Source of the DNA: a virus
Length of the DNA stretch: 64,000 nucleotides
Direction: 5' to 3' (one strand)
Virus record (IMG/VR): IMGVR_UViG_3300042474_001185
Coordinates: 15,838 to 79,837 of that record
The notes under the pieces are model-generated. The model searched no databases and was not told where the DNA came from. It saw only the letters and a program-made list of their open reading frames with translations. The position numbers were made by a program, and so were the translations under genes. Shown piece by piece: positions 21,728 to 55,731 of the stretch (positions are counted from its first letter, which is position 1; every line of letters starts with the position of its first letter).

Positions 21728-22953
21728 TGACACAAAATCAACCGGTTACATTTATAATTCCTTGTAGAAATAATCTAAAGTATTTGCAGCAAGCAGTTCA
21801 AAGTATAGAAACTCATTATGGAGAATATCATCATATTGTTATATTAGATGATGCTTCAACCGATGGTACTAATGATTGGGTAAGTTCAATAAATAAACCA
21901 AATATTATATCATATAGAAATGGTGGACCTGATAGAGTGGGACATACTGTGTTATATGATATTGGTATTAAATTAGCAACAACTCCCATAGTTACAATTC
22001 TACATTCAGATATGATTGTAACACAAAACTATGTTGGTAATATGTTAAAGCATTTAAAACCATTGACTGTAGTTTCTGCTACTCGTATTGAACCACCATT
22101 ACATCCACCGGGTCCTGAAAAGTATGTTAAGGATTTTGGTATGGAGCCTGAAACATTTGATAATTCGTCTTTTCAAAAGTTTGTATATGAAACGGAATAT
22201 ACAACGGAGGGAAAAACCACAAAAGGTATCTTTGCACCTTGGATGTTATATAAAGAAGATTTTGCACAAATAGGTGGACATGATTTATTATTTGCACCAA
22301 TGGAGTTAGAAGATTCGGATATATTCAATAGATTCCATTTACAGCAATATGAATTAATACAAAGTAGAGATGCTTTTGTATATCATATGACTTGTAGAGG
22401 TAGTAGATTTAAAGATGGTATTGAAATTGAAAGAGAGATACCATTACCAGACGGAACTATTTGGTATAAACCTAAAGATTCGGAAGAATATACAAAATTA
22501 AGAAATAATAAATTTAGAGAATGGTGGAGAAAATGGCATACTGATGTATTGCATGATGACCTTATGATGCCAATAGTTCCAAATAGATATACTACTTCAT
22601 TTGTAGTTCATAATTGTAATCCACATCTTTTGGGAGTATTGGAACCTTGGTGCGATGACATATATATTGATTGTGATTTTGGAAGTTATGTAGCTAGTGA
22701 GGAAAATGAATCAATGTTTAAGATAACGGATAAAGTACATAATATTGGGGATGTTATGAAAAATGATGTGCAAATATTATTTGATGGTAGTAAACTAACA
22801 AATGAACATTATACACAATTCATAAAAAACATACCATTTATAGTTCAGCAAACTGATTCAATTGGAAGTTTTGAATGGGATATATTCCAACTTCACATAC
22901 TTAATTTAAGAACAAAAGATATGGTACAGCCATTCTTCAAAAATATATTTTAA
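21727..22953 (+). CDS. GT2-family glycosyltransferase
   Basis: FIIPCRN, LDDASTDGT, LHSD, EDSD; ATG 21727 coupled to the upstream stop. Confidence 0.85.
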   Translation: MTQNQPVTFIIPCRNNLKYLQQAVQSIETHYGEYHHIVILDDASTDGTNDWVSSINKPNIISYRNGGPDRVGHTVLYDIGIKLATTPIVTILHSDMIVTQNYVGNMLKHLKPLTVVSATRIEPPLHPPGPEKYVKDFGMEPETFDNSSFQKFVYETEYTTEGKTTKGIFAPWMLYKEDFAQIGGHDLLFAPMELEDSDIFNRFHLQQYELIQSRDAFVYHMTCRGSRFKDGIEIEREIPLPDGTIWYKPKDSEEYTKLRNNKFREWWRKWHTDVLHDDLMMPIVPNRYTTSFVVHNCNPHLLGVLEPWCDDIYIDCDFGSYVASEENESMFKITDKVHNIGDVMKNDVQILFDGSKLTNEHYTQFIKNIPFIVQQTDSIGSFEWDIFQLHILNLRTKDMVQPFFKNIF

Positions 22954-25401: not shown

Positions 25402-27519
25402 ATGGCAAATAAAAAGATAACCGAATTACCTTATATTACAGGAATATCGGGCTCTACGATAGCGGATAATCCACTAATTAACACTGTGGTTCCTGTGGTT
25501 TTATATGGTACTACGAATCAAATAAATATTGAGAATTTCTCAAGGTTTATGAATTTGTACACTGCTACAACTGGTTCTGCTGGTAATATATTTGTAGGTC
25601 CTCAAACTATTAATAATAATGTAACTATTAATGGAAATCAAGCGGTAAATGGAAATGTTAGTATTAGTGGTAGATTAACAGTTAATGAAGTTGTTGCTCA
25701 ATATGAAACGGCATCGATATTATTTTCAACGGGTTCTACAAAATTAGGTGACCAAATAACCGATAAGCACGAATTTACTGGTTCAACAAATATAACTGGT
25801 TCACTTATTATAAATGGTGTAAACTTTACCGATTTTAGCGCATCTAATTCAACTGTATTTACAAACTTCAGTAGTTCAAACTCAACTGTATTTACAAACT
25901 TTAGTAGTTCTAATTCAACATTATTTACAAATACCAGTAGTTCTATAAACACTACTCTATTTGCAGTAAGTAGTTCTATAAACACTACTTTATTTGCATT
26001 GAGTAGTTCAAACTCAACTGTATTTACAAACTTTAGTAGTTCAAACTCAACTGTATTTACAAATTATAGTTCATCGAATTCAATTGTATTTACAAACTTT
26101 AGTAGTTCAAACTCAACTGTATTTACAAATTATAGTTCATCGAATTCAACTTTAATAACAAATTATAGTAGCTCAATTAATACTACTATATACACAATAA
26201 GTGCTTCGATAGATACCACAATATACACAATAAGTGCTTCAATAGATGATACTTTATTTGCGGTAAGTGCTTCAATAGATTCTACTATTAAGGCTAATTT
26301 GGGAGCAACTAATGATGTAGTATTTAGAATTCAACAAGCAACAGCATCAATACAAGAATATACTGCATCTTTAAAAACAGCAATATTACCTAATGGTACT
26401 AATTTAGATGTTATTGGTAATTTAAGAGTTAGTGGTTCTACTACTTTGGGTGATACTAATACTGATAAGGTTGAAGTAACTGGTTCGGTTAATGTAACTG
26501 GATATGTATCAGCATCTGGTATTAATATCTATTCAACTGGTACTCCTGAAATTCTATCTACAAACAATTTAAGATTAACGGCAGATAGCTCGGTTGTAAT
26601 TACTACTGATAATTCTGGAACAGCAAAGGTATGGGATTTTGATAATGGTGGTACAATAAATTTACCGGGCGGAGCTACAATATCAACACCAAATACTGTG
26701 GATGTGATTGTTGCAGCTGGTTCGGCTGGGGCAGCTCAATTAGCAAACTTTAATAAGGGTAACTACTTTGCAATAAATGATACTCTTGCAACAATTAATG
26801 TGGATGCTGGGGCTACAAATAAGGTATGGCAATTTACAAATGTTGGTAGTATTAATTTACCGGGTTCAATTATTAAACCTGATGGGGGAGAGTATTCAGC
26901 ATCATTAACATTGACATCTTCATTCCATGCATTTACCGCATCAATAGGTTCTACATCAAATGATTATAGAATTGAATTAAATAGTATTGAAGCTTACACT
27001 GCATCTTTAAAAACTGCAGCAATTGTATCATCTTCAACGCAAGTTCAAAACTATGACCTATTCGCATTAAACTCTAACTTATATATTGGTACTGGTTCAT
27101 TACAAGCACAACTTAATGGTTTAATGGGATTCACTGCATCATTGGATAATACATACGCAACTGATGCACAATTACTTCCAATATTACAGGCAACTCGTTC
27201 ATTGGAATTACATAGTGGTTCAATGATTGGTATTACAAATGAATTGATGAGTTACACCGCATCACTTAAAGCAGCAGCAATTGTATCTTCTTCACAACAG
27301 GTACAAAACTACTTCGCATTTGCATTAACTTCATCTAATAATAGTTTCTTTGGTGAAAGTACATTTACAAATAAAGTTACGCATACAAATGGTTATGTAG
27401 TATTATCGCAAGTTTCAGCAAGTTTAAATTTTGTGGATGATGCCGCAGCAGCAATTGGTGGTGTACCTTTGGGTGGATTATATAGAAACGGAAACTTTAT
27501 AGTAATTAGAATAGCATAA
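25402..27519 (+). CDS. putative tail fibre/virion protein
   Basis: MANKKITELP start, GSTKLGD...HEFTGS motif, repeated TASL segments, C-terminal DDAAAAIGGVPLGGLYR. Confidence 0.7.
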   Translation: MANKKITELPYITGISGSTIADNPLINTVVPVVLYGTTNQINIENFSRFMNLYTATTGSAGNIFVGPQTINNNVTINGNQAVNGNVSISGRLTVNEVVAQYETASILFSTGSTKLGDQITDKHEFTGSTNITGSLIINGVNFTDFSASNSTVFTNFSSSNSTVFTNFSSSNSTLFTNTSSSINTTLFAVSSSINTTLFALSSSNSTVFTNFSSSNSTVFTNYSSSNSIVFTNFSSSNSTVFTNYSSSNSTLITNYSSSINTTIYTISASIDTTIYTISASIDDTLFAVSASIDSTIKANLGATNDVVFRIQQATASIQEYTASLKTAILPNGTNLDVIGNLRVSGSTTLGDTNTDKVEVTGSVNVTGYVSASGINIYSTGTPEILSTNNLRLTADSSVVITTDNSGTAKVWDFDNGGTINLPGGATISTPNTVDVIVAAGSAGAAQLANFNKGNYFAINDTLATINVDAGATNKVWQFTNVGSINLPGSIIKPDGGEYSASLTLTSSFHAFTASIGSTSNDYRIELNSIEAYTASLKTAAIVSSSTQVQNYDLFALNSNLYIGTGSLQAQLNGLMGFTASLDNTYATDAQLLPILQATRSLELHSGSMIGITNELMSYTASLKAAAIVSSSQQVQNYFAFALTSSNNSFFGESTFTNKVTHTNGYVVLSQVSASLNFVDDAAAAIGGVPLGGLYRNGNFIVIRIA
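25825..26290 (+). repeat. 33-bp coding repeat (11-aa unit, FTNFSSSNSTV drifting to YTISASIDTTI)
   Basis: repeated tttacaaactttagtagttcaaactcaactgta units; boundaries approximate. Confidence 0.85.
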
Positions 27520-27531
27520 AACAATAAACAA

Positions 27532-28647
27532 ATGGCATTAGAATTATCGGGTTCAATAAATATAAGTGGTTCAATGACCGCAACAACAATAATAGTATCT
27601 GCGCCAGGAGCACCTGGTATGGTATCATCTTCAAATCAATTAGTAGAATTAAATACTGCTACGGGTTCTTTAATAGGAATCACAAATGATTTGACGGCAT
27701 ATACGGCATCATTAAAAGGAGCAATTGAAGTAAGTGGACAAAATGTAAATGTATTAGGTACTCTAACCGCACAAGAAATATATACAACTTATGTAACATC
27801 TTCAATACTGTTTAAAAGTGGGTCAACTAAATTTGGCGATGATACCGGTGATATACATCAATTTACAGGTTCATTAAGAACACGTTTTGGTACTAATGAA
27901 AACTTACATATTTTCAGTCTTGGTTCTGGTGATATGAGATTATCAGCATTAAATGACACTGCAAATTCTAATGTTCAATTATCTGTTCAAGCTTATCCAT
28001 TAATATTTAAAACCGCTGGTGGTCTTGATGTAATACGAATAACAACTGGCAGTATATCTAGTGGTAGAACTGAAATTACTGGTTCATTTAATGTTAATGG
28101 TGAAATTAGAATGGATGGCTCTACATTATTTAGAGGGATGAGTAGTAATACTTTACAATTATGTGGTGGTACTTCAAGTTCTAATATTAAAATTAATGGT
28201 GCAACAGAAGTTATAACACTGGATACCAATGGCGCAACAAGAGTTACCGTCGCCTCATCCGGAACAACAACATTTGGTGGTGCAATTGATACTTCCGAAA
28301 ATTTAATATATTCCAAAAGAACTTCACCTTCTAATGTAACTACTGGTGCAACAACTGTATTTACTATAACACAAAAGAGTGGTGAGTTTCAATCAACTTA
28401 TATGATATCTATTATAGGTCTATATGATTCGGGTGGAGCTAATCAAAATGGATACTATACCGGAATTGCATCATTCTTTAATGATGGAGCTGTTGCACAG
28501 GCAGCTATATCAGGATTACATTCCAACGGATGGTCGGCATCTGCGGCCGCAACATTGGGAGGGTCTTTTACGGTAACCTTTACAAATGCTGCAGCAACAA
28601 CAATGACTAATATTAGAATTACTGCGTTAAAAATAAACGCAACTTAA
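27532..28647 (+). CDS. putative tail fibre/virion protein
   Basis: shares GSTKFGD...HQFTGS and IGITNxLxxYTASLK segments with the upstream protein; Gly/Ser/Thr-rich beta repeats. Confidence 0.65.
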   Translation: MALELSGSINISGSMTATTIIVSAPGAPGMVSSSNQLVELNTATGSLIGITNDLTAYTASLKGAIEVSGQNVNVLGTLTAQEIYTTYVTSSILFKSGSTKFGDDTGDIHQFTGSLRTRFGTNENLHIFSLGSGDMRLSALNDTANSNVQLSVQAYPLIFKTAGGLDVIRITTGSISSGRTEITGSFNVNGEIRMDGSTLFRGMSSNTLQLCGGTSSSNIKINGATEVITLDTNGATRVTVASSGTTTFGGAIDTSENLIYSKRTSPSNVTTGATTVFTITQKSGEFQSTYMISIIGLYDSGGANQNGYYTGIASFFNDGAVAQAAISGLHSNGWSASAAATLGGSFTVTFTNAAATTMTNIRITALKINAT

Positions 28648-28662
28648 TTCAAATAATAACTA

Positions 28663-30246
28663 ATGAAACAATACAACGTTATTTTAAAAAAGGATGTAGA
28701 CTATGATTCTTTTTGGAATGATATTGAAAGTGATACCGATGGTGGTAAACTTTATATTCCAAATAGAGCAGTAGAATTTACAAACGAAAGATTAGCTTCA
28801 CTTCGTCAATGTTGGTATTTGCTGACAGATGAAGAAGCAGAATTACTTAGACAGGATGATAGAGTTTTGGGAGTAGAGATACCGCCAGAGTATAGAGATG
28901 ATATTGTGATGTTACCTAGAGCAACTCAAACTGGAAATTTTACAAAGACAACATCTGATAGTGGTACATTTCTTAATTGGGGATTGATTCGTTCATCAAA
29001 CCCAACTAACGTTTATGGTACTGGTACAACTACCGCATTAAATTATGAATATACCTTAGATGGAACTGGTGTTGATGTGGTAATTCAAGATAGTGGATTA
29101 CAGGTAGACCATCCTGAATTTCAAGATGGAAGCGGTAATACAAGAGTTCAACAAATAGATTGGAGTGATTATAGTGCTGGTTTTGTACAAAGTGCAAATC
29201 ATTATAGAGATTTTGATGGACATGGTACACATGTAGCTGGTATTGCTTGTGGTAAAACATATGGTTGGGCAAAAGAAGCAAGAGTATATTCTCAAAAATT
29301 AAGTGGTTTGGAAGGTAGTGGGGATAGTGGTACTGGTATTAGTATTACTTACGCATTTGATGCTATTAAAACTTGGCATACATCTAAAGCAGGTAGTAGA
29401 CCGACAGTAGTCAATATGAGTTGGGGATATGGAACTTATTATAATACTGTAACATCATTAACTTATAGAGGAGTAACATATTCCGATGGTAGTACTACTG
29501 GAAACGCATCATATAGATTTTCAAACTATGGATTAAATTCATCTTCTGGTTCTCCTGTTGCAACTTATATTGCTAATGTAAGAATTGCTTCGGTGGATAC
29601 TGATATAGAAGAAATGATTGATGCTGGCGTTGTAGTTTGCATAGCAGCCGGTAATAGAGGAACTAAAATAGATGTGTTCGGAGGATTAGATTATAATAAT
29701 TTTGTGACAACTAACTCTGGAATTAAATATTATCATAGAGGAAGTTCTCCATATTCAGATAGAGCATTAATGGTAGGTTCAATTGATAGTACGGTATATG
29801 ATGTGAACAATGACCAAAAAGCTACATATTCCGAAACAGGACCTGGAGTTAGTATTTGGGCGCCTGGCACAAACATTATGAGTGCATGTTCTAATACAAA
29901 CGCATTTGGTGCACAATCATATTATTTGAATGCATCATTTAAGCAAGTTAATATTAGTGGTACTTCAATGGCTGCACCGCAAGTTGCAGGAGTTGCTGCA
30001 TTAGCATTACAATTAAATCCAACATATACACCAACGCAAGTTAAATCATCTTTAGTAGAAAATGCTTCGGATGATATATATACTACTGGAAATACTACGG
30101 ATTATTCTAACACAAGAAGTTTATTAGGGTCTGGTATAAAAATGTTATATAGCAGTTTTACACAGGCACCGATATCTGGTGGTCCTACAGCGTTAGTAGT
30201 AAAAGGTGGGGGATTGAGAATAACTGCGGATATAAGAATGGTATAA
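28663..30246 (+). CDS. S8 subtilisin-like serine peptidase
   Basis: catalytic triad VIQDSG / HGTHVAG / GTSMAAP, oxyanion AAGN, N-terminal prodomain-like region. Confidence 0.92.
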   Translation: MKQYNVILKKDVDYDSFWNDIESDTDGGKLYIPNRAVEFTNERLASLRQCWYLLTDEEAELLRQDDRVLGVEIPPEYRDDIVMLPRATQTGNFTKTTSDSGTFLNWGLIRSSNPTNVYGTGTTTALNYEYTLDGTGVDVVIQDSGLQVDHPEFQDGSGNTRVQQIDWSDYSAGFVQSANHYRDFDGHGTHVAGIACGKTYGWAKEARVYSQKLSGLEGSGDSGTGISITYAFDAIKTWHTSKAGSRPTVVNMSWGYGTYYNTVTSLTYRGVTYSDGSTTGNASYRFSNYGLNSSSGSPVATYIANVRIASVDTDIEEMIDAGVVVCIAAGNRGTKIDVFGGLDYNNFVTTNSGIKYYHRGSSPYSDRALMVGSIDSTVYDVNNDQKATYSETGPGVSIWAPGTNIMSACSNTNAFGAQSYYLNASFKQVNISGTSMAAPQVAGVAALALQLNPTYTPTQVKSSLVENASDDIYTTGNTTDYSNTRSLLGSGIKMLYSSFTQAPISGGPTALVVKGGGLRITADIRMV

Positions 30247-30259
30247 AAATAAAAAAGTT

Positions 30260-31705
30260 ATGGCTAGTGGATATGTTAGTTGGACAACACCTGATGGTAA
30301 TTCACCTAACCCAGTTTATATAGATGATACAAATAAAAGTGTAGAATTTTCTGCAAGAGAAGATGTAGCACCTTATACAATCACTAGGCCAGTCGGTTCA
30401 GTAATTTACACATTATCAAATTTAGGAATTATTAATGGTTTTCAATGTTATAGATATGCGGTATATGTAACAGCAACTACAACAACTACAACAACTACAA
30501 CTGAACCACCTGAAATAACTTTAACTACTGTTGGTAGTTGTACTGGTATTGGAATAGAGGGTACTGGTAGAGTAGTAGCAAGTGGATTTAGTGGCGGTAG
30601 TGGTACATACTCTACTATAAGAATTGGTACATCTATGGAAAACGCATTTGATGCAACTCCAATTAATTTAAGTGGAGCTACGTCATACCAATTTGATAAT
30701 TTAAATAGTGCGGTATGGTTTGTATTAGTAACAGATAGTGCTGGTTATCAGGGATATGCTAGACAGATTATAAATTGTACAAACACAACAACAACAGCTG
30801 GGCCAACATCAACTACTACTGAAGCATCAACAACAACTACAACATCTACATCAACAACATCTACATCAACTACAACAACTACGGGAGCACCGCTATCATT
30901 TAATCTTGCATTTGATGCTAGTTCAGGTACAACCGCATGTAGTAATTATCCTGCAACTAATACGGCTCTTAGATACGCATATTATACTGCAACTTTAGGA
31001 AATGGAATACAATTATTTACATCTACTGCACTAAGTACTGCTGTTGCAAACGGATACTATTCAAATGGTACGAACTATTGGTTAGCTACATCTGGTATAT
31101 TGAATTCTCAAGTATCTTGTACTAACCCTTGTGGATTTAATGGAGGAACTGCTGTATATACGGCACCAACAACTACAACTACTACAACCGCAGCACCAAC
31201 AACAACAACTGCAGCACCAACAACAACTACTGCAGCACCAACAACAACTACTGCAGCACCAACAACTACAACCGCAGCACCAACAACAACTACTGCGGCT
31301 CCAACTACAACTACTGCGGCTCCAACTACAACTACTGCAGCACCAACAACAACTACTGCAGCACCAACAACAACTACGGCAGCACCAACTACAACTACTG
31401 CAGCACCAACAACTACAACCGCAGCACCATCGTTTACAACATACAATATAGGACCAGATTACGCAAATGCTACATCAGCTTGTACTTCGTTTTCTATGGA
31501 TTTCCATACAGAAGTATATGCAGCGGAAGCTGCTCCAGCTTTAGTTACACGATTCTACACAGATACTGCATTGACAGTAGGATTTGTGGGTTCATCAGAC
31601 TTTTATGCATGGGCTTTAGCGCCAGAAAGTACAACACCATTTGTTAATGGACAAGTTAGCTCATTAGGAAATGTAAGTAATATCACAGGATGTGCTGGTA
31701 TCTAA
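30260..31705 (+). CDS. mucin-like Thr-rich putative virion protein
   Basis: poly-Thr tracts and 11 x AAPTTTT separating small Cys-flanked beta domains. Confidence 0.75.
   Translation: MASGYVSWTTPDGNSPNPVYIDDTNKSVEFSAREDVAPYTITRPVGSVIYTLSNLGIINGFQCYRYAVYVTATTTTTTTTTEPPEITLTTVGSCTGIGIEGTGRVVASGFSGGSGTYSTIRIGTSMENAFDATPINLSGATSYQFDNLNSAVWFVLVTDSAGYQGYARQIINCTNTTTTAGPTSTTTEASTTTTTSTSTTSTSTTTTTGAPLSFNLAFDASSGTTACSNYPATNTALRYAYYTATLGNGIQLFTSTALSTAVANGYYSNGTNYWLATSGILNSQVSCTNPCGFNGGTAVYTAPTTTTTTTAAPTTTTAAPTTTTAAPTTTTAAPTTTTAAPTTTTAAPTTTTAAPTTTTAAPTTTTAAPTTTTAAPTTTTAAPTTTTAAPSFTTYNIGPDYANATSACTSFSMDFHTEVYAAEAAPALVTRFYTDTALTVGFVGSSDFYAWALAPESTTPFVNGQVSSLGNVSNITGCAGI
31190..31429 (+). repeat. 21-bp coding tandem repeat, (AAPTTTT)x11 plus AAP
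   Basis: gcagcaccaacaacaactact-type units, 231 bp from first to last AAP start, synonymous variation only. Confidence 0.95.
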
Positions 31706-31765
31706 TAATGATTGTTATTACACATGTAGTATATAAAATAAAAAATGAAATAATTATAAAATAGA

Positions 31766-32635
31766 ATGAATGTAACGATAACATATACTTCACTTGGTGT
31801 GGATTCTGGATTTAATTATAATCTAACAGCAAATGTAGGTTCAGTAACACCATCAACTGCAACAAAAACGGAATTGTTAGCTGGTAAACTTGTGACTGTT
31901 GATGATACTGCTACTAATGTTACTATTACATCTACGGGAACTTGTACTAACGCAAGTACGTTAAGTATAACAGGTATCCCAACAACTACTACAACCACAA
32001 CTACAACAACGACAACAACTACAACAACTACAACAACTACGGCAGCACCAACTACAACAACCGCCGCACCAACAACTACAACCGCAGCACCAACAACAAC
32101 TACTGCAGCACCAACTACTACAACGGCAGCTCCATTAAATCAAGTAAACTATGGATATGATGCTTCCGATCCTGATGTGGCTTGTACAAATTTTGAAACC
32201 TTTACTTTTTTCGCATTGTTTAATAATAATAATGACCCTTCTGCAAATGGTGTAATTGTGTGGACAAATAACAACGGAACTGGAACTCCTGCTAATGGAT
32301 ATTATGCTAGAGGTGGTAATGTATGGTATATGACTGGTGGAGTATTAGGAAGTCAAGCAGTATGTTATAGTGGAACACCTACAACTACTACAACCGCAGC
32401 TCCAACTACAACCGCAGCACCACCACAAGATTATTATGATTATGAAAGATGTGTTAATCCAAATGCATATGAGGGTGGAATTTATAGTATTGGCTTAAAT
32501 TCGGGAGATTCGCCACCATCAACAATTTTAGTGAGTGGAGATTGTCATAGTATAGTATCATACACACCATCGGCATTTGCTAGTTATACAACCCCTGTAT
32601 ATAGCATACCATCACCTGCGTGTGCTTGTATATAA
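31766..32635 (+). CDS. second mucin-like Thr-rich putative virion protein
   Basis: T20 run, 4 x AAPTTTT and a Cys-flanked NGYY domain shared with the upstream protein. Confidence 0.75.
   Translation: MNVTITYTSLGVDSGFNYNLTANVGSVTPSTATKTELLAGKLVTVDDTATNVTITSTGTCTNASTLSITGIPTTTTTTTTTTTTTTTTTTTTAAPTTTTAAPTTTTAAPTTTTAAPTTTTAAPLNQVNYGYDASDPDVACTNFETFTFFALFNNNNDPSANGVIVWTNNNGTGTPANGYYARGGNVWYMTGGVLGSQAVCYSGTPTTTTTAAPTTTAAPPQDYYDYERCVNPNAYEGGIYSIGLNSGDSPPSTILVSGDCHSIVSYTPSAFASYTTPVYSIPSPACACI
31982..32134 (+). repeat. poly-Thr (20 codons) plus (AAPTTTT)x4
   Basis: ACN codon run followed by 21-bp units. Confidence 0.9.
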
Positions 32636-32681
32636 AATTAAAAATATTAATATAAGATAATTATATATACAAATAAAGGTT

Positions 32682-33626
32682 ATGAAGAATTTACGTTTCG
32701 TATGTGCTCAACCCGCAATTCCATATTACACTTGGCAGGTTGAAGTAATGATACACAATTTTATTGAAATGGGAGTTAATCCAAACAATATGGATATAGT
32801 TTGTTATGCGGCAAATGGAATAGTACCTCCTGATTGGAGAAAGTTAGCAGACAAATACAACTATGTTAGATTTTTCTTTTATGATGATACAAGACGAAAT
32901 AGAGGATATACATCATCCATAAGACCTAATATATTAAAACAACATTGGAAAGCTAGACCTGAAATACATGATGATGTAATTTTTTATCATGATTGTGATA
33001 TTGCCTTCACAAAACCAATTGGAGAATGGATAACGGACGAAATGATTAATGATAATAATTGGTATGGTTCGGATTGTAGATGGTACATATCTTATTCTTA
33101 TATAAAATCAAAAGGAAATGATGTATTAAGTGCTATGTGTTCACTAATGGAAATTGATGAAAAGGTTGTTGAAGATAATGAACTAAATGGAATTGGTGCA
33201 CAATATATAATGAAAGGTATATCCGAAAAATATTGGGAAACAATAGAAATGGATTGTGAAAAGTTATTTGTTAATATTACAGAGTTAAATAGAATTAAAG
33301 TAGAACAAGACCCAACACACCATTCATTACAAATATGGTGTGCTGATATGTGGGCTGTTTTATGGAACGCTTGGAAGATGGGATATAAAACAATATGTCA
33401 TCCTAATTTAGAATTCAGCTGGGCAACATCTCCTGAAAATTTATGGGATAAATGTAATATATTTCATAACGCAGGTGCTACAACTTCAAAGGATGGATTG
33501 TTTTACAAAGCAGAATATATGAACAAATTACCATATAATGAAAATTTAAATATTAAAGAAGGAACTACTTCATATGAGTATTGGAAACTAATACAAAAAA
33601 CAGCAAAAAAATCAGTATTGATATGA
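32682..33626 (+). CDS. GT-A glycosyltransferase resembling plant peptide O-glycosyltransferases (GT95 HPAT / GT96 SERGT)
   Basis: ordered motifs YYTWQ, YxSSIRP, YHDCD, GAQYIM, WCADMWA..NAWKMG, IFHN. Confidence 0.6.
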   Translation: MKNLRFVCAQPAIPYYTWQVEVMIHNFIEMGVNPNNMDIVCYAANGIVPPDWRKLADKYNYVRFFFYDDTRRNRGYTSSIRPNILKQHWKARPEIHDDVIFYHDCDIAFTKPIGEWITDEMINDNNWYGSDCRWYISYSYIKSKGNDVLSAMCSLMEIDEKVVEDNELNGIGAQYIMKGISEKYWETIEMDCEKLFVNITELNRIKVEQDPTHHSLQIWCADMWAVLWNAWKMGYKTICHPNLEFSWATSPENLWDKCNIFHNAGATTSKDGLFYKAEYMNKLPYNENLNIKEGTTSYEYWKLIQKTAKKSVLI

Positions 33627-34588
33627 GTAAATCTTATAGTGTATTTGTTGATGATAAATATTATTATGACTTTGTAGCATTATATAATAGTTGGAAATAT
33701 TATGAAAGTAAAATCCCAATTAAAGTTTATATTGCTGGCGATTTGAGTGAAGAAAGAAGAATCGCTTTGGAAAAAATAGTAAAAGTTATTAACGTAAGTA
33801 GTGATGGTTATGGATATCCGCACTTTAAAGGAAAGTACTTATTTAAATGGATTGGCTTATCAAAGTATATGGATGATTATGAAATACTATTAGATGCCGA
33901 TACATTATTTTTATCTAATATTGATTTTCTATTTGATGAATTGGAAAAAGGAAAATTTATAGGAGCTAGAGAGCATGTAGATGTTATACACAATTCATAT
34001 GTAACCAATGATGAATGGCCAGATGAATGTATGAGAATAAGAAATCAATTGAAAAAATATATAGGCGATGTGGCTGATAATTATGTAGAAGATTTAATAA
34101 CACCAACATATAATGCAGGACTTATTGGATTTAGTAAAGTTCATCATAAATTTTTATTAGATAAATCCATAGAAATATTAACAAGTGATTTTCACACTGA
34201 TAAAAATCCAATATCACACTTAGAGCAATATATGATGAATTTATTATTACAATTATATTCAATAGATATTCATATTTTACCTCAATTAGAATGGATGAAT
34301 ACATGGCATTGGCATCTTAATCCAAAAAAGATACTAAAAATAGAAGATAGTAAATTTGCATTGTATAATGATGGAGGTAATAAAATAAATTTTTATCATT
34401 TTACAGGAGGTATTGGTTTAGTTGACCCGATTGATAAGATAATGAAACCATGCAGAATGCATCAGATATACGAATCTCAAGTCTACGAATCTCAATTTAA
34501 ACGAGACGATGTTGAGAAACTTTGGTATAGTAGATATCAAAATCCAGTAATTTTATTATACGAACACTTTGCAAATAAAGGGTTATAA
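33623..34588 (+). CDS. GT8-like glycosyltransferase
   Basis: ILLDADTLFL, YNAGL, EQYMMN, FYHFTG; ATG 33623 overlaps the upstream stop. Confidence 0.72.
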   Translation: MSKSYSVFVDDKYYYDFVALYNSWKYYESKIPIKVYIAGDLSEERRIALEKIVKVINVSSDGYGYPHFKGKYLFKWIGLSKYMDDYEILLDADTLFLSNIDFLFDELEKGKFIGAREHVDVIHNSYVTNDEWPDECMRIRNQLKKYIGDVADNYVEDLITPTYNAGLIGFSKVHHKFLLDKSIEILTSDFHTDKNPISHLEQYMMNLLLQLYSIDIHILPQLEWMNTWHWHLNPKKILKIEDSKFALYNDGGNKINFYHFTGGIGLVDPIDKIMKPCRMHQIYESQVYESQFKRDDVEKLWYSRYQNPVILLYEHFANKGL

Positions 34589-34599
34589 AACAAAAACAT

Positions 34600-35628
34600 A
34601 TGACAATAAAAGAACAATTTCAAACTTACAAAATTCATCAATTACAATTAGACCCATATGGTGTATGTAATGCTAGATGCTGGTTCTGTCCAGTAAAATA
34701 TAAAGGAAACCCAGCGGAAGGGAAAGAAGTGATGAGTGTTGAATTATTAGAAAAAATAATTAAAAATCTTATTGATGAAAGAGATAGAGAAGATGGTTTA
34801 GTACATAAACATTTTGGAGGATTTTATACAGCACATTATAACGAAATTCTTTTATATCCACACTTTGAACAATTATTACAAATCTGCCAAAAATATAGAT
34901 TATGTTTTATGGTATTATCCAATGGAGTTCCTTTGACTCCTGACAAGGTTGATTTAATTGTAAAATACAAAGGTGTTGTAAATGGTATATGTCTAAATAT
35001 TCCAGCATTTGAACCTGAAGTTTGGAGTTTAAGAAGTGGTATAAACATAAAGCAATTTGATAAACTAATATCTAATGTAAAATATGCTATGGAACAACTA
35101 CCTGATATGGTACAAAACAAATCATTCTCAATTCAAATAAATGGTTCTAGTGAACATTCTTTTAGTGATAAGGGTGGTTGGTTAGATAAGGGTATTGAAT
35201 TTCCAACTGATATAGATTTGGACCCAGTTACTGGTGAGTTAGCTAAGCAAACCCAAATAGCTAAAAATTTATTTGAAGGTTTACAAATATATCCATGTGC
35301 ATCTTTAATTGATAGAGCTGGTTTGTTGGACCATATAATGACTAATAAAGAAGCAATAAAAAGAAACTTACAGCATGGAGATGAAACTAAAAAAGTTATT
35401 GGATGTGGTAATGGTAGAGAAGTAGGTGGTAGACCTGTTGGTTGGATTCATGTAAACGCAGCGGGTAAAGTATTCCTTTGTTGTAATGACTATGATATGG
35501 AAGTTCAGTTTGGAGATTTTAAAACGCAAGAATTAAGTGAATTCTGGGGAAGTACAGAGCACCAAAGAAAAGTGCAAAAATCATACGATACGATTTGTAG
35601 AGGATGTGCTTCGGCTATTTTTGAATAA
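34600..35628 (+). CDS. radical SAM protein with SPASM/twitch-type C-terminus
   Basis: CNARCWFC (CxxxCxxC), SNG, C-terminal C...CCND...CRGC. Confidence 0.9.
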   Translation: MTIKEQFQTYKIHQLQLDPYGVCNARCWFCPVKYKGNPAEGKEVMSVELLEKIIKNLIDERDREDGLVHKHFGGFYTAHYNEILLYPHFEQLLQICQKYRLCFMVLSNGVPLTPDKVDLIVKYKGVVNGICLNIPAFEPEVWSLRSGINIKQFDKLISNVKYAMEQLPDMVQNKSFSIQINGSSEHSFSDKGGWLDKGIEFPTDIDLDPVTGELAKQTQIAKNLFEGLQIYPCASLIDRAGLLDHIMTNKEAIKRNLQHGDETKKVIGCGNGREVGGRPVGWIHVNAAGKVFLCCNDYDMEVQFGDFKTQELSEFWGSTEHQRKVQKSYDTICRGCASAIFE

Positions 35629-35660
35629 TTAAAAAAATAATACTTATAAAAAACTAAGTT

Positions 35661-36131
35661 ATGATATATTGGTTTACGGGTCAACCCGGTGCAGGTAAGA
35701 CGGTATTAGGTACTAAGTTAAAAGACTTTTTACAAACCGAAAAGAGAAATTGGAGAAAGGATGTATTCCATATTGACGGAGATGATTTAAGAGAATTGAC
35801 TCTTAATAAAGATTACACAGAACAAGGTAGAATTCAAAACATTAAGAATGCACAATTATTAGCATATTTCCTACAAGCTAATGAGTGTGATGTTGTTGTT
35901 TCTTTAGTCGCACCATATAAAGAATTAAGAGAGGAATTTAAAAAAATATGTGCGGATAATATAATTGAAATTTATGTTCATACTAATCGTAAAAGACAAA
36001 GAGAACAATTTAAAGTAGAGGGATACGAAGCACCTGAAACGAACTTCTTTGATATGGATACAACATCTGATAATCCAACACAATCTTTTACAAAATTAAT
36101 ACATCACTTAAGAGAAATAGATAAATTATAA
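35661..36131 (+). CDS. cysC: adenylyl-sulfate (APS) kinase
   Basis: WFTGQPGAGKT, IDGDDLR, VSLVAPY, YEAP. Confidence 0.85.
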   Translation: MIYWFTGQPGAGKTVLGTKLKDFLQTEKRNWRKDVFHIDGDDLRELTLNKDYTEQGRIQNIKNAQLLAYFLQANECDVVVSLVAPYKELREEFKKICADNIIEIYVHTNRKRQREQFKVEGYEAPETNFFDMDTTSDNPTQSFTKLIHHLREIDKL

Positions 36132-36135
36132 AGTT

Positions 36136-36495
36136 ATGAAAAAATACGCAATGTACATTGGAAGATGGCAAAATTGGCACAAAGGACATGAGTGGTTAAT
36201 AAACCAACAATTAGAAAAAGGTAAAAACGTTTGGGTAGCAATTAGAGATGTTCAGCAAGATGAGAACAATCCAAAGACGGCTCAACAAATCCTAAAAGAA
36301 TTATCAGCAGAACCATTTTTTACAAACAATTTTGATAAGATTTTGTTATCTATTATTCCTGATATTGAATCGGTGAACTATGGCAGAGGTGTAGGATATG
36401 ATGTAATTTATCACGAACCACCTGCAGATGTAGCTGTAATTAGTGGTACTGCTATCCGTAATGGAGAAATGAAATCAGATGGTAGTTCAACGTAA
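36136..36495 (+). CDS. small HxGH nucleotidyltransferase (cytidylyltransferase-like)
   Basis: GRWQNWHKGH and ISGTAIR motifs. Confidence 0.75.
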   Translation: MKKYAMYIGRWQNWHKGHEWLINQQLEKGKNVWVAIRDVQQDENNPKTAQQILKELSAEPFFTNNFDKILLSIIPDIESVNYGRGVGYDVIYHEPPADVAVISGTAIRNGEMKSDGSST

Positions 36496-36688
36496 GAGAC
36501 ATATAGCTAAGACCATCTCATATCGTATTTTAAGTACGCTTATAGGGTTTTGTATAATGTGGTGGGTAAGTGGTTCAATCAAAGTTGGAGCGGCATTTGG
36601 GGTAGCAGAATTGATTTATAAACCCATCCAATACTACATTCACGAAAGAATTTGGTATAAGTGGATAAAATATGGATTGAAAAAATAA
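36479..36688 (+). CDS. DUF2061-like small membrane protein
   Basis: RHIAKTISYR...YYIHERIW. Confidence 0.8.
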   Translation: MVVQRKRHIAKTISYRILSTLIGFCIMWWVSGSIKVGAAFGVAELIYKPIQYYIHERIWYKWIKYGLKK

Positions 36689-38353: not shown

Positions 38354-38764
38354 ATGAAAATTTGGTTATGGAGATTACTCGGACTATTGTTCGTAGGTTG
38401 CGCATACATCGGAGCTATTGTTCCTGGCGTACCTATGACAACATTTGTAATCTTAGCAGCATGGGCATTCGCTAAGAGTTCACCAAAGTTAAATCATTGG
38501 TTGCATACTCACCCAACATTCTCACCATATCTTATTAGATGGGAGGAAAAAAGCATTTATCCAACGAAAGTTAAATGGATAATGGCTATTACTATGGTTG
38601 TAAGTTATTCCATTTTACTATTCACATTACATAAACCAGCAGCACTTATTGGTATTGGTTGCTTTATGTTATTTTGGGTAGTATGGGCTTGGAGATATCC
38701 GGGTTCAGAAGAAGAATATGAGCGTAGAAAGAAAGCTGGAGAGAAAATTGGTTGGACAAAATAG
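38354..38764 (+). CDS. ybaN: YbaN/DUF454 family membrane protein
   Basis: GAIVPGVPMTTFVILAAWAFAKSSPKLNHWLHTHPTF. Confidence 0.85.
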   Translation: MKIWLWRLLGLLFVGCAYIGAIVPGVPMTTFVILAAWAFAKSSPKLNHWLHTHPTFSPYLIRWEEKSIYPTKVKWIMAITMVVSYSILLFTLHKPAALIGIGCFMLFWVVWAWRYPGSEEEYERRKKAGEKIGWTK

Positions 38765-38775
38765 TTTAATCTAAT

Positions 38776-39543
38776 ATGGAAGATGTTACACTTATCATTC
38801 AAGGAAGATTGACACAAGAAACATATGATTTTTATCTAAAGACTTGTACCAATTTTCCTGTTCTTATTTCCACATGGGTGGATTGTAAAATAGATTTCTC
38901 TAGTTTACCACCTAATTTTTTAGTAATATTATCACAAATTCCTGAAGAGCCTGGTGCTCAAAATTTTCATTATCAAACTGTTTCTACTTTAACTGCATTA
39001 GAAAGAATAAAAACAAAGTATGCAATTAAAGTGAGAGGTGATGAATTTTATTCAAATTTGCAATATATTCATAATGTATTAAGAGTAGATCCCGATAAAA
39101 TACATTCTGCTCCGGTATTTTTTAGAGCGTGGCAGTACTCGGAATATCATATATCAGACCATGTTATAGCTGGTACAACTGAAAATCTATTGATTATGTT
39201 TAGAGCATGTAAGCACAACTTTGATACTGGTAAGATGAATGTTTCAAAATGGAAAATTGATGGAAACTTTCATAAATACGTTACAACTCATGCACCCGAA
39301 GAACGAATAACTAAATCTTATTTAGATGCTAAAGCTCCTGATAAGTTTGAAAGAGTTGATGGTAGAATATTAATGAAAGAATATTTTGATATATTAGATT
39401 TAAATTTATTAAAACCATACAAAGTAAAAGCAAATTTATTTAGAGTAGAATGGTATGATAACTTCCTTCCAGAAGCAAATTATAGTATATCAACCATAGA
39501 CCAATTATTTAGTGATGACCCATATAAAATACCAAACCAATGA
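38776..39543 (+). CDS. WavE-like glycan synthesis protein
   Basis: IIQG, LISTW, KYAIKVRGD, ISDH..AGT. Confidence 0.65.
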   Translation: MEDVTLIIQGRLTQETYDFYLKTCTNFPVLISTWVDCKIDFSSLPPNFLVILSQIPEEPGAQNFHYQTVSTLTALERIKTKYAIKVRGDEFYSNLQYIHNVLRVDPDKIHSAPVFFRAWQYSEYHISDHVIAGTTENLLIMFRACKHNFDTGKMNVSKWKIDGNFHKYVTTHAPEERITKSYLDAKAPDKFERVDGRILMKEYFDILDLNLLKPYKVKANLFRVEWYDNFLPEANYSISTIDQLFSDDPYKIPNQ

Positions 39544-39965
39544 TACTAATATCGCATAGAGGAAACATAGATGGTAAAATACCTGAATACGAAAACAATC
39601 CAAATTATATACAAGCTGCATTAGAGTTAGGTTACGATGTAGAAGTTGATGTATGGTTTGTTGATGGTAAGTTTATGTTAGGACATGATGAACCGCAATA
39701 CGAAACTGATTATAAGTTTTTGATGAACGAAAAGTTATGGTGTCATGCTAAACACTTGGATGCATTGTTTGAAATGAAAAAATATGCAATTCATTACTTT
39801 TGGCATGAAACTGATACCGTAGCACTTACATCTAAAAATTATGTTTGGGCATATCCTGGTAAGCAACCAATCAAAGGAAGTATAGCTTGTATGCCTGAAT
39901 TGGAAAATGATAATGTACTACTTTGTAAAGGTATTTGTTCTGATTATATAAAAAGGTATAGGTAA
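39540..39965 (+). CDS. small PLC/GDPD-like phosphodiesterase
   Basis: ISHRGN, EN, DVEVDVW, LGHD, WCHAK. Confidence 0.7.
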   Translation: MILISHRGNIDGKIPEYENNPNYIQAALELGYDVEVDVWFVDGKFMLGHDEPQYETDYKFLMNEKLWCHAKHLDALFEMKKYAIHYFWHETDTVALTSKNYVWAYPGKQPIKGSIACMPELENDNVLLCKGICSDYIKRYR

Positions 39966-40367
39966 ATGAATATATATCCTCCAGCTAAAGTTTATATAGC
40001 AAAAAGTAGTGTTCATGGCTGGGGTGTTTTTGCCAAAGAAATAATCTATGAAGGGGAGGTAATAGAAGAAACCCCGTTATTAGACCTAAAGATTGAGAAA
40101 GGGTCACCATCATCGGTTTTATTAGATTATAGATTCAATTGGCCGCAAGGAAGTGGTAACAATTGGGAAAAACAAGTTATACCTTGGGGATATGGTTGTT
40201 TATATAATCATTCCAACGAAGCTAATGCATATTGGCGCTCAAATTTGGAAAATGAAACTTTTGAATTTGTAGCAAATAGAGATATAGAAATTGATGACGA
40301 AATATTTACCTATTATGGTGGTGTTGAGTATTGGGAAGATGGTAGAACTAAAACAAATGTAGTATAA
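39966..40367 (+). CDS. SET-domain protein (putative lysine methyltransferase)
   Basis: HGWGVFA, YNHS..AN, RDIEIDDEIFTYYG. Confidence 0.88.
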   Translation: MNIYPPAKVYIAKSSVHGWGVFAKEIIYEGEVIEETPLLDLKIEKGSPSSVLLDYRFNWPQGSGNNWEKQVIPWGYGCLYNHSNEANAYWRSNLENETFEFVANRDIEIDDEIFTYYGGVEYWEDGRTKTNVV

Positions 40368-41179
40368 TGAAAATAGCACTTTGTTTTTCTGGATTTATTA
40401 GAGATTTAGATGAAACTAAAAACTTTTGGACAGAACTTATAGAAAAACATAAGATAGATGTGTATGCCTCTTTTTGGGATACTGAAAAACCTGAATTGAA
40501 TGATACTATAAACAATTTCTTAACAATATATACTCCTAAAAAATATGAAGTTGAGAATTATAAAATATTCAAAGAAACAACGCAAGATTTTGCTTCAATG
40601 AATATAGCATCTCCACAAAACTTACTTCCACATTTACAAGATACCTCAAAAGCATTTGGGCAACTATCAATGTATTATAAAGTTTGGAAATGTAATATGC
40701 TTACTAAGCAATTGGGTATAGAGTATGATTTAGTTATAAGAGCTAGAACCGATGTTATTTTAGATGAGCATTTTGAAATAGTTGAAAATGATATGTTAAA
40801 TATACCAATGGGATGGATGAGTTGTTTTTCATATCCGCACTCCGATGGTATAAATGATTGCTTTGCATACGGAAGACCAAAGATAATGGATTATTATAGT
40901 TTTATATATCTTAGAATGATGGAATATCTAAATGTAGGACATTATGTATTCCCACCAGAACATTTCTTAGCTGTACATTTTAGTAAGATTCATATTCAAA
41001 TGAGATACTTTCCAAACTATATGATAATAACAAGAATATCAAAAGGTACACCACATGATGTTTACAATTCTTTTATAACAAAACCATACGAAGATATAAG
41101 ATGGAGTGATTGGAATGATTTTATTCCGGATGAAAGGTGGACATTTAAGAAATCAATAAAAGATGATTTTATCGTTTAA
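40367..41179 (+). CDS. glycan-cluster-associated protein, putative glycosyltransferase
   Basis: MKIALCFSG.IR, YDLVIRARTD, NDCFAYG. Confidence 0.55.
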   Translation: MKIALCFSGFIRDLDETKNFWTELIEKHKIDVYASFWDTEKPELNDTINNFLTIYTPKKYEVENYKIFKETTQDFASMNIASPQNLLPHLQDTSKAFGQLSMYYKVWKCNMLTKQLGIEYDLVIRARTDVILDEHFEIVENDMLNIPMGWMSCFSYPHSDGINDCFAYGRPKIMDYYSFIYLRMMEYLNVGHYVFPPEHFLAVHFSKIHIQMRYFPNYMIITRISKGTPHDVYNSFITKPYEDIRWSDWNDFIPDERWTFKKSIKDDFIV

Positions 41180-41215
41180 ATGTATAATGTTATATTTAAT
41201 AAAAAATAAAGCATT

Positions 41216-41383
41216 ATGAATGTAGAAAACAAAATCAAAGACATTATAGATATGTTAGAAGATGCTATCTCATTTGAAGATTGGAATAGAGTTGAGGAAG
41301 CACAAAAAGAACTAACATTTATATATGAAGAAATGCAATCATCATTTCCTCTAGATGAGTGGGATGAGAATGATATAGATTAA
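41216..41383 (+). CDS. 55-aa acidic protein (not in ORF track)
   Basis: MNVENKIKDIIDMLEDAISFEDWNRVEEAQKEL...; fills the intergenic gap. Confidence 0.6.
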   Translation: MNVENKIKDIIDMLEDAISFEDWNRVEEAQKELTFIYEEMQSSFPLDEWDENDID

Positions 41384-41390
41384 TAAAAAT

Positions 41391-42110
41391 ATGGTAAAAA
41401 AAATACTGGTTACGGGATTCCCCCATAGTGGGACTACTATACTTCGTGCTAAAATTGGAGAATGTAAAAACATATATGAGGCTCAATATGAATGTGTAGA
41501 CCCACCAAACTTCTACCCAGCTATGCCATATGATTTTTATGTATGGAAGCATCCTTTTTTGGATACGCCATTTAGAAATCATACGTTTGCAATAAAGCCT
41601 GACAGTAAATACGTTGATACAATTGTTATTCCAATTATTAGAAATCCTTGGAATATATTTTCATCCTTACATAAGAGAGGTACACAAAGTGGAGAATTTT
41701 CAATATATGATAGTAGACAGGGACATTCTTTACCTTGGTATGAAAATACATGCGAAGTTATATTTGATGCATTTCAAAAAAATTATAAAGATGTATATCC
41801 AATAAAATACGAAGAAATGTTTGATAATAATTTTGAAAAGCTTAGAAATATTTTTGATAGTATTGGATTGGAATATGATGATGATATATTTGAAAAAAGA
41901 ACCAAAGAATTTAGTCATGGTGATGCTATGTATGTAGAAGATTATGATAAAAACGGAAAGTATGATGGTGGTTTGAGAGCTTGGCAAATAAACCAACCTT
42001 TTAAAAATATGAATGGAGATATTAATTTACCCGATGATTTTTCTCAAATGTTAGCAAATTCACCAAGCATTCAAAAATTAGGGTATTCGGACCCTCGTAT
42101 AACTGATTGA
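41391..42110 (+). CDS. PAPS-dependent sulfotransferase-like
   Basis: 5'-PSB loop TGFPHSGTTIL, 3'-PB IRNPW...SS, IKYEE. Confidence 0.75.
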   Translation: MVKKILVTGFPHSGTTILRAKIGECKNIYEAQYECVDPPNFYPAMPYDFYVWKHPFLDTPFRNHTFAIKPDSKYVDTIVIPIIRNPWNIFSSLHKRGTQSGEFSIYDSRQGHSLPWYENTCEVIFDAFQKNYKDVYPIKYEEMFDNNFEKLRNIFDSIGLEYDDDIFEKRTKEFSHGDAMYVEDYDKNGKYDGGLRAWQINQPFKNMNGDINLPDDFSQMLANSPSIQKLGYSDPRITD

Positions 42111-42174
42111 TTTTCAATAGGTTAGACATATAATAAAAAAATATATCTGTAAAGCGTTGATTCTCAAGAAACAA
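42100..42174. promoter_or_regulatory. two copies of a 25-bp palindromic operator-like element
   Basis: TAACTGATTGATTTTCAATAGGTTA (42100-42124) and a degenerate copy at 42150-42174. Confidence 0.6.
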
Positions 42175-42188
42175 TTTTTGGGATAAAA

Positions 42189-42220
42189 TTTGGTAGTCTC
42201 AAATAATTGTTGTATATTTA
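42189..42220 (+). promoter_or_regulatory. Bacteroidota-type promoter
   Basis: TTTG-N20-TATATTTA. Confidence 0.8.
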
Positions 42221-42250
42221 CATATAATTAATTCACAAAAACCCCTTTAT

Positions 42251-55495: not shown

Positions 55496-55731
55496 TAATT
55501 AATATTTTACCGGATGAGTTAGAGCCGGAATTTAGAGAAAGTTGGAAGATGGGATTTATAACTCAGCCATCTATTGATTATGCAGATAACGCAATTTGGG
55601 CAATCTTTGAAGGTAGACAGATAACCATTTTTAGATTCAAAGAATATGGTTTTATAAATGATAATAGACATAATAGTTATAGTATATCAGCTGGAAGTGC
55701 TGGGGTAACAATTAAAATAGATAAAAAATGA
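55492..55731 (+). CDS. hypothetical protein
   Basis: ATGA-coupled start MIINILPDELEPEF; upstream extension in the ORF track is unlikely. Confidence 0.6.
   Translation: MIINILPDELEPEFRESWKMGFITQPSIDYADNAIWAIFEGRQITIFRFKEYGFINDNRHNSYSISAGSAGVTIKIDKK

Follow-up and report, generated by a model that had tools for sequence, protein, structure and literature searches.

The adjacency of a phage-encoded glycosyltransferase (GT) to Thr-tract proteins of 17 unrelated families, together with the co-variation of enzyme and tract among homologous tail proteins, argues that the enzyme most likely glycosylates these tracts. In the window analysed here, a 64,000-nt stretch of a viral record, we regard the enzyme (32682..33626) and p1 and p2, the Thr-rich products of the two genes immediately before its own, as a probable enzyme–substrate gene pair that serves virion glycosylation. 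As read from comparative genomics, fold and motifs, the enzyme would act late in infection in the host cytoplasm, using a nucleotide sugar as donor and attaching the first sugar to Thr hydroxyl groups in the two linker types of p1 and p2, poly-Thr and AAPTTTT; on the virion, both proteins would then be densely coated with O-glycans. Where a family member is encoded behind a major capsid or tail-tube gene, as in other phages, it would decorate poly-Thr tails on head and tail.

The 79.8-kb record is 37% complete, with the capsid genes outside it, and the source phage looks like a large T4-like aquatic myovirus. Every ORF that the initial annotation had placed in the region was recovered, all on the + strand; the genes are closely packed on this one strand, and no terminator-like site was found. 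Upstream, 25402..30246 (+) holds two repeat-rich fibre-like ORFs, neither with a family match, and a protein with an S8 subtilase domain. In close relatives, the gene preceding the poly-Thr protein matches PHROGs of the T4-type long tail fibre distal subunit.

The predicted acceptors p1 (30260..31705, +; 481 aa) and p2 (31766..32635, +; 289 aa) contain 26.4% and 25.6% Thr, as computed from their translations. Four globular domains of ~70–90 aa make up p1, with poly-Thr or (AAPTTTT)n linkers between them; p2 combines a 20-residue Thr run with AAPTTTT repeats. TRF detects a 21-nt unit in 11.1 copies (90% matches, score 363) at 31196..31429 (+), which encodes the (AAPTTTT)n tract of p1, and further ACN-rich arrays in both genes. 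Domain 85–175 of p1 is predicted to fold as an Ig-like β sandwich (pLDDT 95.1), with weak fold matches to Ig, FN3, PKD and GhpA; p1 also yields a SprB-repeat lead, and p2 domain 125–201 is 33% identical to p1 domain 212–299. Neither protein matches a PHROG. The Pro/Thr/Ser-rich tandem repeats (26% Thr, 11 AAPTTTT copies, runs of up to 20 Thr) are mucin-like; the secretory signal of a mucin is absent, as inspection of the translations revealed no hydrophobic signal-like N-terminal segment in p1 or p2. Composition, TRF and translations thus bear out the earlier description of poly-Thr/(AAPTTTT)n proteins lacking a signal peptide, and without such a segment any glycosylation would be cytoplasmic. 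The location of p1 and p2 in the tail-fibre region and their strings of Ig-like domains suggest that both are probably attached to the virion as fibre or decoration proteins. Across the whole 79.8-kb record, runs of at least 5 Thr or windows with at least 8 Thr per 12 residues occur only in p1 and p2, and both genes sit directly before the enzyme gene.

The enzyme gene (32682..33626, +) encodes a member of phrog_4417, a large phage family without annotated function: residues 5–307 align with positions 2–291 of the 293-position profile (E 3.2e-60), and the family profile recovers 986 cluster representatives at E ≤ 1e-3. The motifs YYTWQ, YTSSIRP, HDCD, GAQYIM and QIWCADMWAVLWNAWKMG, pointed out in the initial annotation, are all present in the translation and map to columns that the family keeps invariant or nearly so (W18, Y76, S79, P82, D104, D106, G172-A173-Q174, Q217, W219, M223 and W224). 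The predicted assignment to GT-A also stands, with a Rossmann-like nucleotide-sugar domain carrying a DxD metal site. The closest solved folds belong to GT8/GT24, and GT8 structures are the top fold matches. From the retaining GT-As of these groups (LgtC, glycogenin, Skp1 Gat1, UGGT, LARGE1 and pneumococcal GlyE) the enzyme is set apart by a sequence identity of 7–11% and by invariant motifs of its own (xxWQ, YxxSxxP, GAQ and QxWxxxMW). No Pfam family, Glyco_transf_8 included, matched the window enzyme or 21 relatives at E ≤ 10; a PDB sequence search with the family profile returned no match, and no characterised glycosyltransferase model in the Pfam, NCBIfam and PDB sequence searches matches the enzyme. 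Residues H262, G265 and K276 are invariant and recall the GT8 HxxGxxKPW motif with a different spacing, a likeness of sequence pattern rather than of superposed residues. The enzyme has no membrane segment. We conclude that the enzyme is a soluble GT-A that depends on metal (DxD) and belongs structurally with the GT8/GT24-like group, which makes retaining chemistry probable. Domain fusions within the family, to GT6, GT2 plus GT32, a methyltransferase or radical SAM/SPASM (P0258), fit the first step of a multi-step glycan pathway.

Linkage of the family to poly-Thr genes is strong and directional, the poly-Thr gene lying immediately upstream on the same strand. Among 80 close IMG/VR relatives, a poly-Thr ORF occupies position −1 in 48 of 77 loci and position −2 in 24 of 70, and none of 223 positions from +1 to +3. 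In 65 bacterial-genome (prophage) loci from Bacillota, Bacteroidota, Actinomycetota, Saccharimonadales and Geobacter, position −1 holds a poly-Thr ORF in 51 of 60, against a background of ~1% elsewhere (5/350 at −4 to −2 and +1 to +4). The −1 proteins are major tail (phrog_88, phrog_14018) or major head proteins (phrog_840, 10, 247, 422); in prophages the tract is placed at 95–98% of the protein length, and the partner capsid or tail gene, 5–6 genes off, usually ends in poly-Thr as well. Once the tracts are masked, the −1 proteins form 17 clusters, between which BLAST detects no similarity. Family-wide, acceptor tracts are mostly pure Thr/Ser and Pro-free, for example C-terminal runs of 6–10 Thr. 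The reverse test gave the same picture: 8 of 82 viral loci chosen solely by an in-frame (ACN)10 Thr run carry the enzyme family, all 8 immediately downstream on the same strand, compared with 0 of 36 control loci with the (ACN)10 repeat in another frame. Among viral poly-Thr genes picked at random, just 10% have a family member inside the fetched flank, indicating that Thr tracts occur without the enzyme nearby too.

Enzyme and tract also co-vary. Seven complete phages share homologous tail-tube proteins: in the two that bear the enzyme (phiFL1A and R3.3) these proteins have poly-Thr tails, whereas in the five enzyme-free phages (Javan47, Javan505, phiJL-1, ATCC8014 and SPP1) they lack them, and the set includes such a contrast within one genus, Coetzeevirus. 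The association with Thr-rich genes on which the initial annotation had staked its proposal thus holds over 17 unrelated acceptor families and is accompanied by co-variation. We consider it unlikely that the enzyme instead acts on polymers of the host envelope, on phage DNA or on a free glycan and merely shares late-operon placement with structural proteins whose Thr tracts serve, unmodified, as flexible linkers or tails. Such a non-tract acceptor would be in line with the GT8-like fold, which includes the LPS/polysaccharide enzymes LgtC and WbbM, with the wholly comparative nature of the support for protein glycosylation, and with the most viral poly-Thr genes that have no enzyme in the fetched flank. 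In about one third of close relatives, most of which belong to one sub-lineage, the enzyme gene adjoins no poly-Thr gene, and several actinobacterial homologues have no Thr-rich neighbour; a complete genome from that sub-lineage carries three poly-Thr ORFs elsewhere. A shared operon position, however, does not account for same-strand adjacency at −1 over so many unrelated families or for homologous tail-tube proteins that are Thr-tailed only where the enzyme is present. The lack of a membrane segment likewise favours Thr tracts as the acceptor, as does the setting of the family, which is found within head/tail morphogenesis modules rather than in modules for DNA modification or lysogenic conversion.

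A specific kinship to the plant families GT95 (HPAT) and GT96 (SGT1), proposed in the initial annotation, is not supported. The proposal drew on a putative resemblance in motif order between the enzyme and GT95/GT96. The HPAT model PF23452 (cut-off 23.9 bits) matches neither the window enzyme at E ≤ 10 nor homologues in 39 records, and the closest folds are those of GT8/GT24. The plant enzymes, type II membrane proteins of the Golgi, act on Hyp or Ser; they resemble the activity proposed here in placing the first sugar on a peptide hydroxyl of a repetitive, Pro/Ser/Thr-rich structural protein, but the phage enzyme is soluble and tied to Thr tracts. It is highly improbable that the enzyme acts, in the manner of HPAT and SGT1, on Hyp (or Ser) after a phage 2OG oxygenase has hydroxylated the Pro of AAPTTTT. 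This variant would draw on the Pro of the window repeats, on a 2OG-FeII_Oxy_3 (prolyl-hydroxylase-type) match at G000:C1:1020-1265 (22.5 bits, under the cut-off of 27), and on weak HPAT leads, namely sub-threshold hits to 2 of 70 diverse relatives (best E 0.05) and HPAT on 10% of the members of one Atlas neighbour cluster. GT95 has a predicted GT-A-like structure (PMC8476585), and a relationship between it and GT96 has been described (PMC8476585, PMC8012813). Thr is nevertheless the feature common to acceptors family-wide, and because most tracts are Pro-free, a Hyp variant is unlikely as a rule of the family.

Freeman et al. (2023) are said to have described virion O-glycosylation of mycobacteriophages in Cell Host Microbe. 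Passages of PMC12619734 and PMC12894461 describe that system as cytoplasmic, with phage-encoded GTs and with glycans on the C-termini of capsid and tail-tube proteins. Its combination of a GT with Ser/Thr-rich capsid and tail-tube tails recurs in our prophage relatives, where the major head protein and the major tail protein both bear poly-Thr tails; p1 and p2 would take the acceptor role in the window. The two systems differ in several respects: the enzyme family is distinct at the BLAST level (tblastn with two distant family members gave one and the same set of 77 phage records, with no Mycobacterium phage among them), the enzyme gene here is directly attached to the acceptor gene, and the window acceptors, instead of having C-terminal tails, carry tandem repeats in the interior of a multi-domain, mucin-like chain. 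Decoration of head and tail has been demonstrated by experiment in mycobacteriophages, with other enzymes, whereas here it is predicted from comparative genomics. Novelty relative to this precedent lies in the different enzyme family and the new, mucin-like type of acceptor, and our literature search found no description of a phage enzyme–Thr-tract pairing as a route to virion glycosylation. Gram-positive serine-rich-repeat adhesins are primed by GtfA/B and then extended by GT8 enzymes such as GlyE; there, a GT-B (GT4) pair primes a substrate exported by accessory Sec, whereas here a GT-A would prime a substrate that joins the virion. Capsid and fibril glycosylation in chloroviruses and giant viruses concerns eukaryotic viruses and other GT families, and chlorovirus glycans are atypical N-linked ones.

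If our model is correct, phrog_4417 is one readily spotted gene that flags glycosylated virions in many phages. Among them would be phages of Enterococcus, Staphylococcus, Lactococcus and Lactobacillus that matter to therapy and dairy fermentation, as well as prophages from no fewer than five bacterial phyla and myoviruses abundant in aquatic habitats. Virion glycans of mycobacteriophages are reported as an antibody shield in work cited in a passage of PMC12619734, and a widespread second system would matter for host range and adsorption as well as for phage pharmacology. Cytoplasmic glyco-engineering would also gain an enzyme that is compact and soluble and whose acceptor tag, a run of Thr, is very simple. 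The prediction is directly testable using phages already cultured; carriers of the family among these include Enterococcus phiFL1A and VPE25, Lactococcus 1706 and P1046, Lactobacillus Semele and Chryseobacterium MA9V-3.

The neighbouring putative GT and the radical SAM/SPASM enzyme may extend or tailor the glycan, as may other sugar and sulfation genes of the window, a role that we offer as conjecture. The function that the initial annotation proposed for such a coat, as bait for SusC/D receptors or as a shield, is equally speculative. The ATG of a putative second GT-A (33623..34588, +) overlaps the enzyme stop codon (ATGA). The GT8-like assignment given to it initially has sub-threshold matches only (Mannosyl_trans3, E 3e-4, 20.7 bits, cut-off 22; glycogenin-2, E 0.05, around the DxD). 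Pfam did confirm the other two downstream assignments: radical SAM and SPASM domains (E 7e-11 and 3e-8) in a candidate tailoring enzyme at 34600..35628 (+), and an APS-kinase-like P-loop kinase (PF01583, E 4e-16) at 35661..36131 (+), whose NCBIfam adenylyl-sulfate kinase matches all lie under their cut-offs. The second GT adjoins the enzyme in only 6 of 156 related loci and the radical SAM gene in 24 of 156. Sugar genes at ~1–23 kb and 38–42 kb encode GT4, GT11, GtrB-like GT2, FkbM, SDR epimerases, WavE and a sulfotransferase; GT11 (14759–15616) and the sulfotransferase (41391–42110) were thus confirmed among the glycan genes first proposed, and no GT31 was found among the ORFs scanned.

This large set of sugar-nucleotide and GT genes, together with the Ig-like and SprB-like domains of p1, which are frequent in adhesins, would suit a module that makes a free or lipid-linked polysaccharide bound or carried non-covalently by p1 and p2 as Thr-linker fibre proteins. 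We judge this very unlikely, as it leaves unexplained the small siphophages that have no other sugar genes and keep the enzyme right behind Thr-tailed capsid or tail genes. The most elaborate form of Thr-tract glycosylation is quite unlikely as a whole: a sulfated, radical-SAM-tailored mucin-type glycocalyx, built in the host cytoplasm on fibre-associated Ig-domain proteins of a T4-like aquatic phage, primed by a Thr-specific GT-A distantly related to plant GT95/96, and serving as decoy, adhesin or shield toward a Bacteroidota host. The region ends with a weakly supported small HxGH-type nucleotidyltransferase (36136..36495, +), which matches the C-terminal half of phrog_10255 (E 9e-8) and, weakly, NCBIfam cyt_tran_rel and NMNAT, and with a small DUF2061 membrane protein (36479..36688, +; PF09834, E 3e-15).

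All of the ORFs that the initial annotation had placed at 30260-36688 are present. Directly upstream of the gene for the GT-A glycosyltransferase (32682-33626; the enzyme) lie two genes for Thr-rich, mucin-like predicted acceptors, p1 (30260-31705) and p2 (31766-32635), each with a Thr share of ~26%. Both proteins are strings of 70-90-aa globular segments with poly-Thr or AAPTTTT linkers between them, and the p1 repeat comprises 11.1 copies of a 21-nt unit. No other poly-Thr ORFs (a Thr run of at least 5, or at least 8 Thr in 12 residues) are present in the whole 79.8-kb record.

The tie to Thr-rich genes on which the initial annotation had staked its proposal extends to the homologues of the enzyme, where it is strong in four independent ways. 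Among 80 IMG/VR loci whose enzymes share 57-85% identity (close set), a poly-Thr ORF occupies the position immediately upstream (-1) in 48/77, -2 in 24/70 and -3 in 8/61, and positions +1 to +3 in 0/223. A distant set comprised 65 loci from bacterial genomes, with 26-74% identity to an Enterococcus member and ~28% to the window enzyme; these are Bacillota prophages together with loci in Pedobacter, Propionibacteriales, Saccharimonadales and Geobacter. Here, poly-Thr ORFs are found at -1 in 51 of 60 loci versus 5 of 350 other nearby positions. The -1 proteins are major tail or major head proteins by PHROG, and their Thr tract is located at the extreme C-terminus. The cultured phages phiFL1A (Enterococcus), Semele (Lactobacillus), P1046 (Lactococcus) and MA9V-3 (Chryseobacterium) agree with this pattern; Enterococcus VPE25, Lactococcus 1706, Lactobacillus LP65 and Lacticaseibacillus R3.3 are further cultured carriers of the family. 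Masking of the tracts splits the -1 proteins into 17 clusters that share no BLAST similarity; the enzyme is linked to the Thr tract rather than to a single inherited neighbor.

Further proteins encoded in the distant-set loci carry such ends. Where the enzyme follows a tail-tube gene, a ~390-aa protein six genes upstream is likewise poly-Thr-ended, as is, in about one third of these loci, a ~105-aa protein five genes upstream; where it follows a capsid gene, a ~210-aa protein five genes downstream ends in poly-Thr. In Bacillaceae prophages (L179-L205), the ~105-aa protein, at -5 from the enzyme, is encoded between the capsid and tail genes and has 6-9 terminal Thr residues. It would add a third predicted acceptor to each virion, next to the capsid and the tail tube.

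The association also holds in reverse. We selected 82 viral loci solely because they contain ten consecutive ACN codons in frame, with 36 loci carrying the repeat in another frame as controls. The enzyme family is present in 8 of the 82, directly downstream and on the same strand in all eight, and in 0/36 controls. Finally, of seven complete phages whose tail-tube proteins are homologous, only phiFL1A and R3.3, the two that bear the enzyme, have Thr tails, and these are on capsid and tail alike; the tail-tube proteins of Javan47, Javan505, phiJL-1, ATCC8014 and SPP1, which do not carry it, stop at the conserved body. This contrast exists within a single genus, Coetzeevirus, between R3.3 and its enzyme-free relatives phiJL-1 and ATCC8014. 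One sub-lineage, represented by the L025 locus and ~25 similar loci, has the enzyme without an adjoining poly-Thr gene, in a conserved order of genes for proteins of 199, 332, 74 and 118 aa, the GT, and then 170-286 aa. The complete 65-kb phage of this type (G025) contains three poly-Thr ORFs, all distant from the enzyme gene, at 20466-20879, 38413-43269 and 55715-56074.

Read most simply, these genes encode an enzyme and its substrate, and the enzyme would act as a cytoplasmic protein O-glycosyltransferase recognizing Thr runs on virion proteins. That Thr residues in structural proteins of phages are O-glycosylated is a prediction well supported by the genomics, broad across phages and immediately testable. 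As cited in PMC12619734, capsid and tail-tube subunits of mycobacteriophages bear O-glycans at their C-termini, the one experimentally established case (Freeman et al. 2023). All functional assignments here come from comparative genomics, and the predicted system would parallel that case. In contrast to these C-terminal glycans, the predicted acceptors in the window lineage are multi-domain mucin-like proteins rather than C-terminal tails. By BLAST, the enzyme family also differs from the mycobacteriophage one, as the 77 phage records with homologues include 0 Mycobacterium phages. Open-access papers and preprints yielded no description of the family or of Thr-tailed phage capsid or tail proteins.

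The enzyme matches phrog_4417 (annotated as 'unknown function') at E 3e-60, and neither it nor the family profile matched Pfam, NCBIfam or PDB sequences. The family comprises 2626 proteins in a 90%-clustered collection, or 986 representatives at 50% clustering, and the names listed for its members are all hypothetical, uncharacterised or bare prophage labels. When a diverse family alignment was used to scan viral sequences a second time, close relatives were again the only matches. The enzyme motifs noted initially are real and coincide with invariant or nearly invariant family columns, including Y-x-D104-x-D106; their resemblance to motifs of plant GT95 and GT96 is putative. Of the original reading, Thr O-glycosylation of phage proteins is supported by synteny and co-variation, but the plant-type GT95/GT96 label is unsupported, since the Pfam HPAT model (PF23452) matches neither the window protein nor its homologues in 39 records. 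Sub-threshold HPAT matches in 2 of 70 diverse relatives, and HPAT on 10% of the members of an Atlas neighbor cluster, are leads and not evidence. GT95 and GT96 are described as related to each other (PMC8012813). The DUF7164 model (PF23741) likewise gave no match.

Since most tracts contain no Pro, the family is unlikely to be hydroxyproline-directed. The only candidate for the prolyl hydroxylase that had been suggested to lie elsewhere is an ORF that lies ~14.6 kb before the window begins (positions 1020-1265 of the whole record, G000:C1), whose match to 2OG-FeII_Oxy_3 (prolyl-4-hydroxylase-type) is below the cut-off (22.5 bits versus 27).

In close relatives, the gene before the poly-Thr protein matches T4-type long tail fiber distal subunits, which argues that p1/p2-type acceptors belong to the fiber module of a T4-like myovirus; their location would thus be on the virion. 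Residues 85-175 of p1 recur in neighboring genes of 16 related loci and are confidently predicted to fold into an Ig-like β sandwich. The SprB-repeat flavor of this domain is a lead only; together with the Chryseobacterium and Pedobacter homologues, the SprB-like domain is consistent with a Bacteroidota host.

Downstream partners of the enzyme differ among 156 related loci. A radical SAM/SPASM gene adjoins it in 24, an APS-kinase-like gene in eight and a putative second GT in six; further relatives have GT2, or GT4 and a methyltransferase. In an hhalign comparison, the family and the neighboring putative GT aligned around DxD only (probability 1%), and the two are thus no detectable paralogues. 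An ATGA at 33623-33626 holds both the stop codon of the enzyme gene and the ATG of the gene that follows, an overlap suggestive of translational coupling; in the mechanical ORF list, this following gene begins at an upstream TTG (33581). At least one protein joins radical SAM/SPASM and GT domains in a single chain, and fusions among five representatives (P0258, P0261, P0317, P0257 and P0284) involve radical SAM+SPASM, GT6, GT32+GT2 and methyltransferase domains. A C-terminal extension without a clear Pfam match is common to 51 of the best 150 representatives. A fused form exists inside the window's own lineage, where the enzyme ORF of locus L012 (6001-6972 region) encodes 668 aa. The variable partners fit a scheme in which a conserved priming step would be followed by lineage-specific extension. 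The sulfation genes of the window might act on this glycan too, and a bait role, as proposed initially, is a possibility.

The window is AT-rich, with all large gene-like ORFs on the + strand, and derives from a record that is 37% complete (CheckV). The phage collection contained zero near-identical DNA matches, and a promoter scan gave fewer matches than shuffled sequence did. Sugar genes are unusually abundant across the 64 kb: DegT aminotransferase, SDR epimerase, GT4, GT11 and FkbM genes at 10-19 kb, further GTs at 1102-2391 and 21673-22953, and WavE-like, SET and sulfotransferase genes at 38-42 kb. The GT31 named initially was absent from the window ORFs scanned, a part of all its ORFs. 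The SET-domain protein (39966-40367) has an E of 2e-12; a DUF454 membrane protein is encoded in the same sugar/sulfotransferase stretch, at 38354-38764. GT genes surround a collagen-like tail-fiber protein (2923-4989) that matches several tail-fiber PHROGs (E down to 1e-21). Between the fiber-like and mucin-like genes lies a gene for a subtilase (S8) domain protein (28663-30246; phrog_9158, E 2e-76), which could be a fiber-maturation protease or a virion-borne enzyme.
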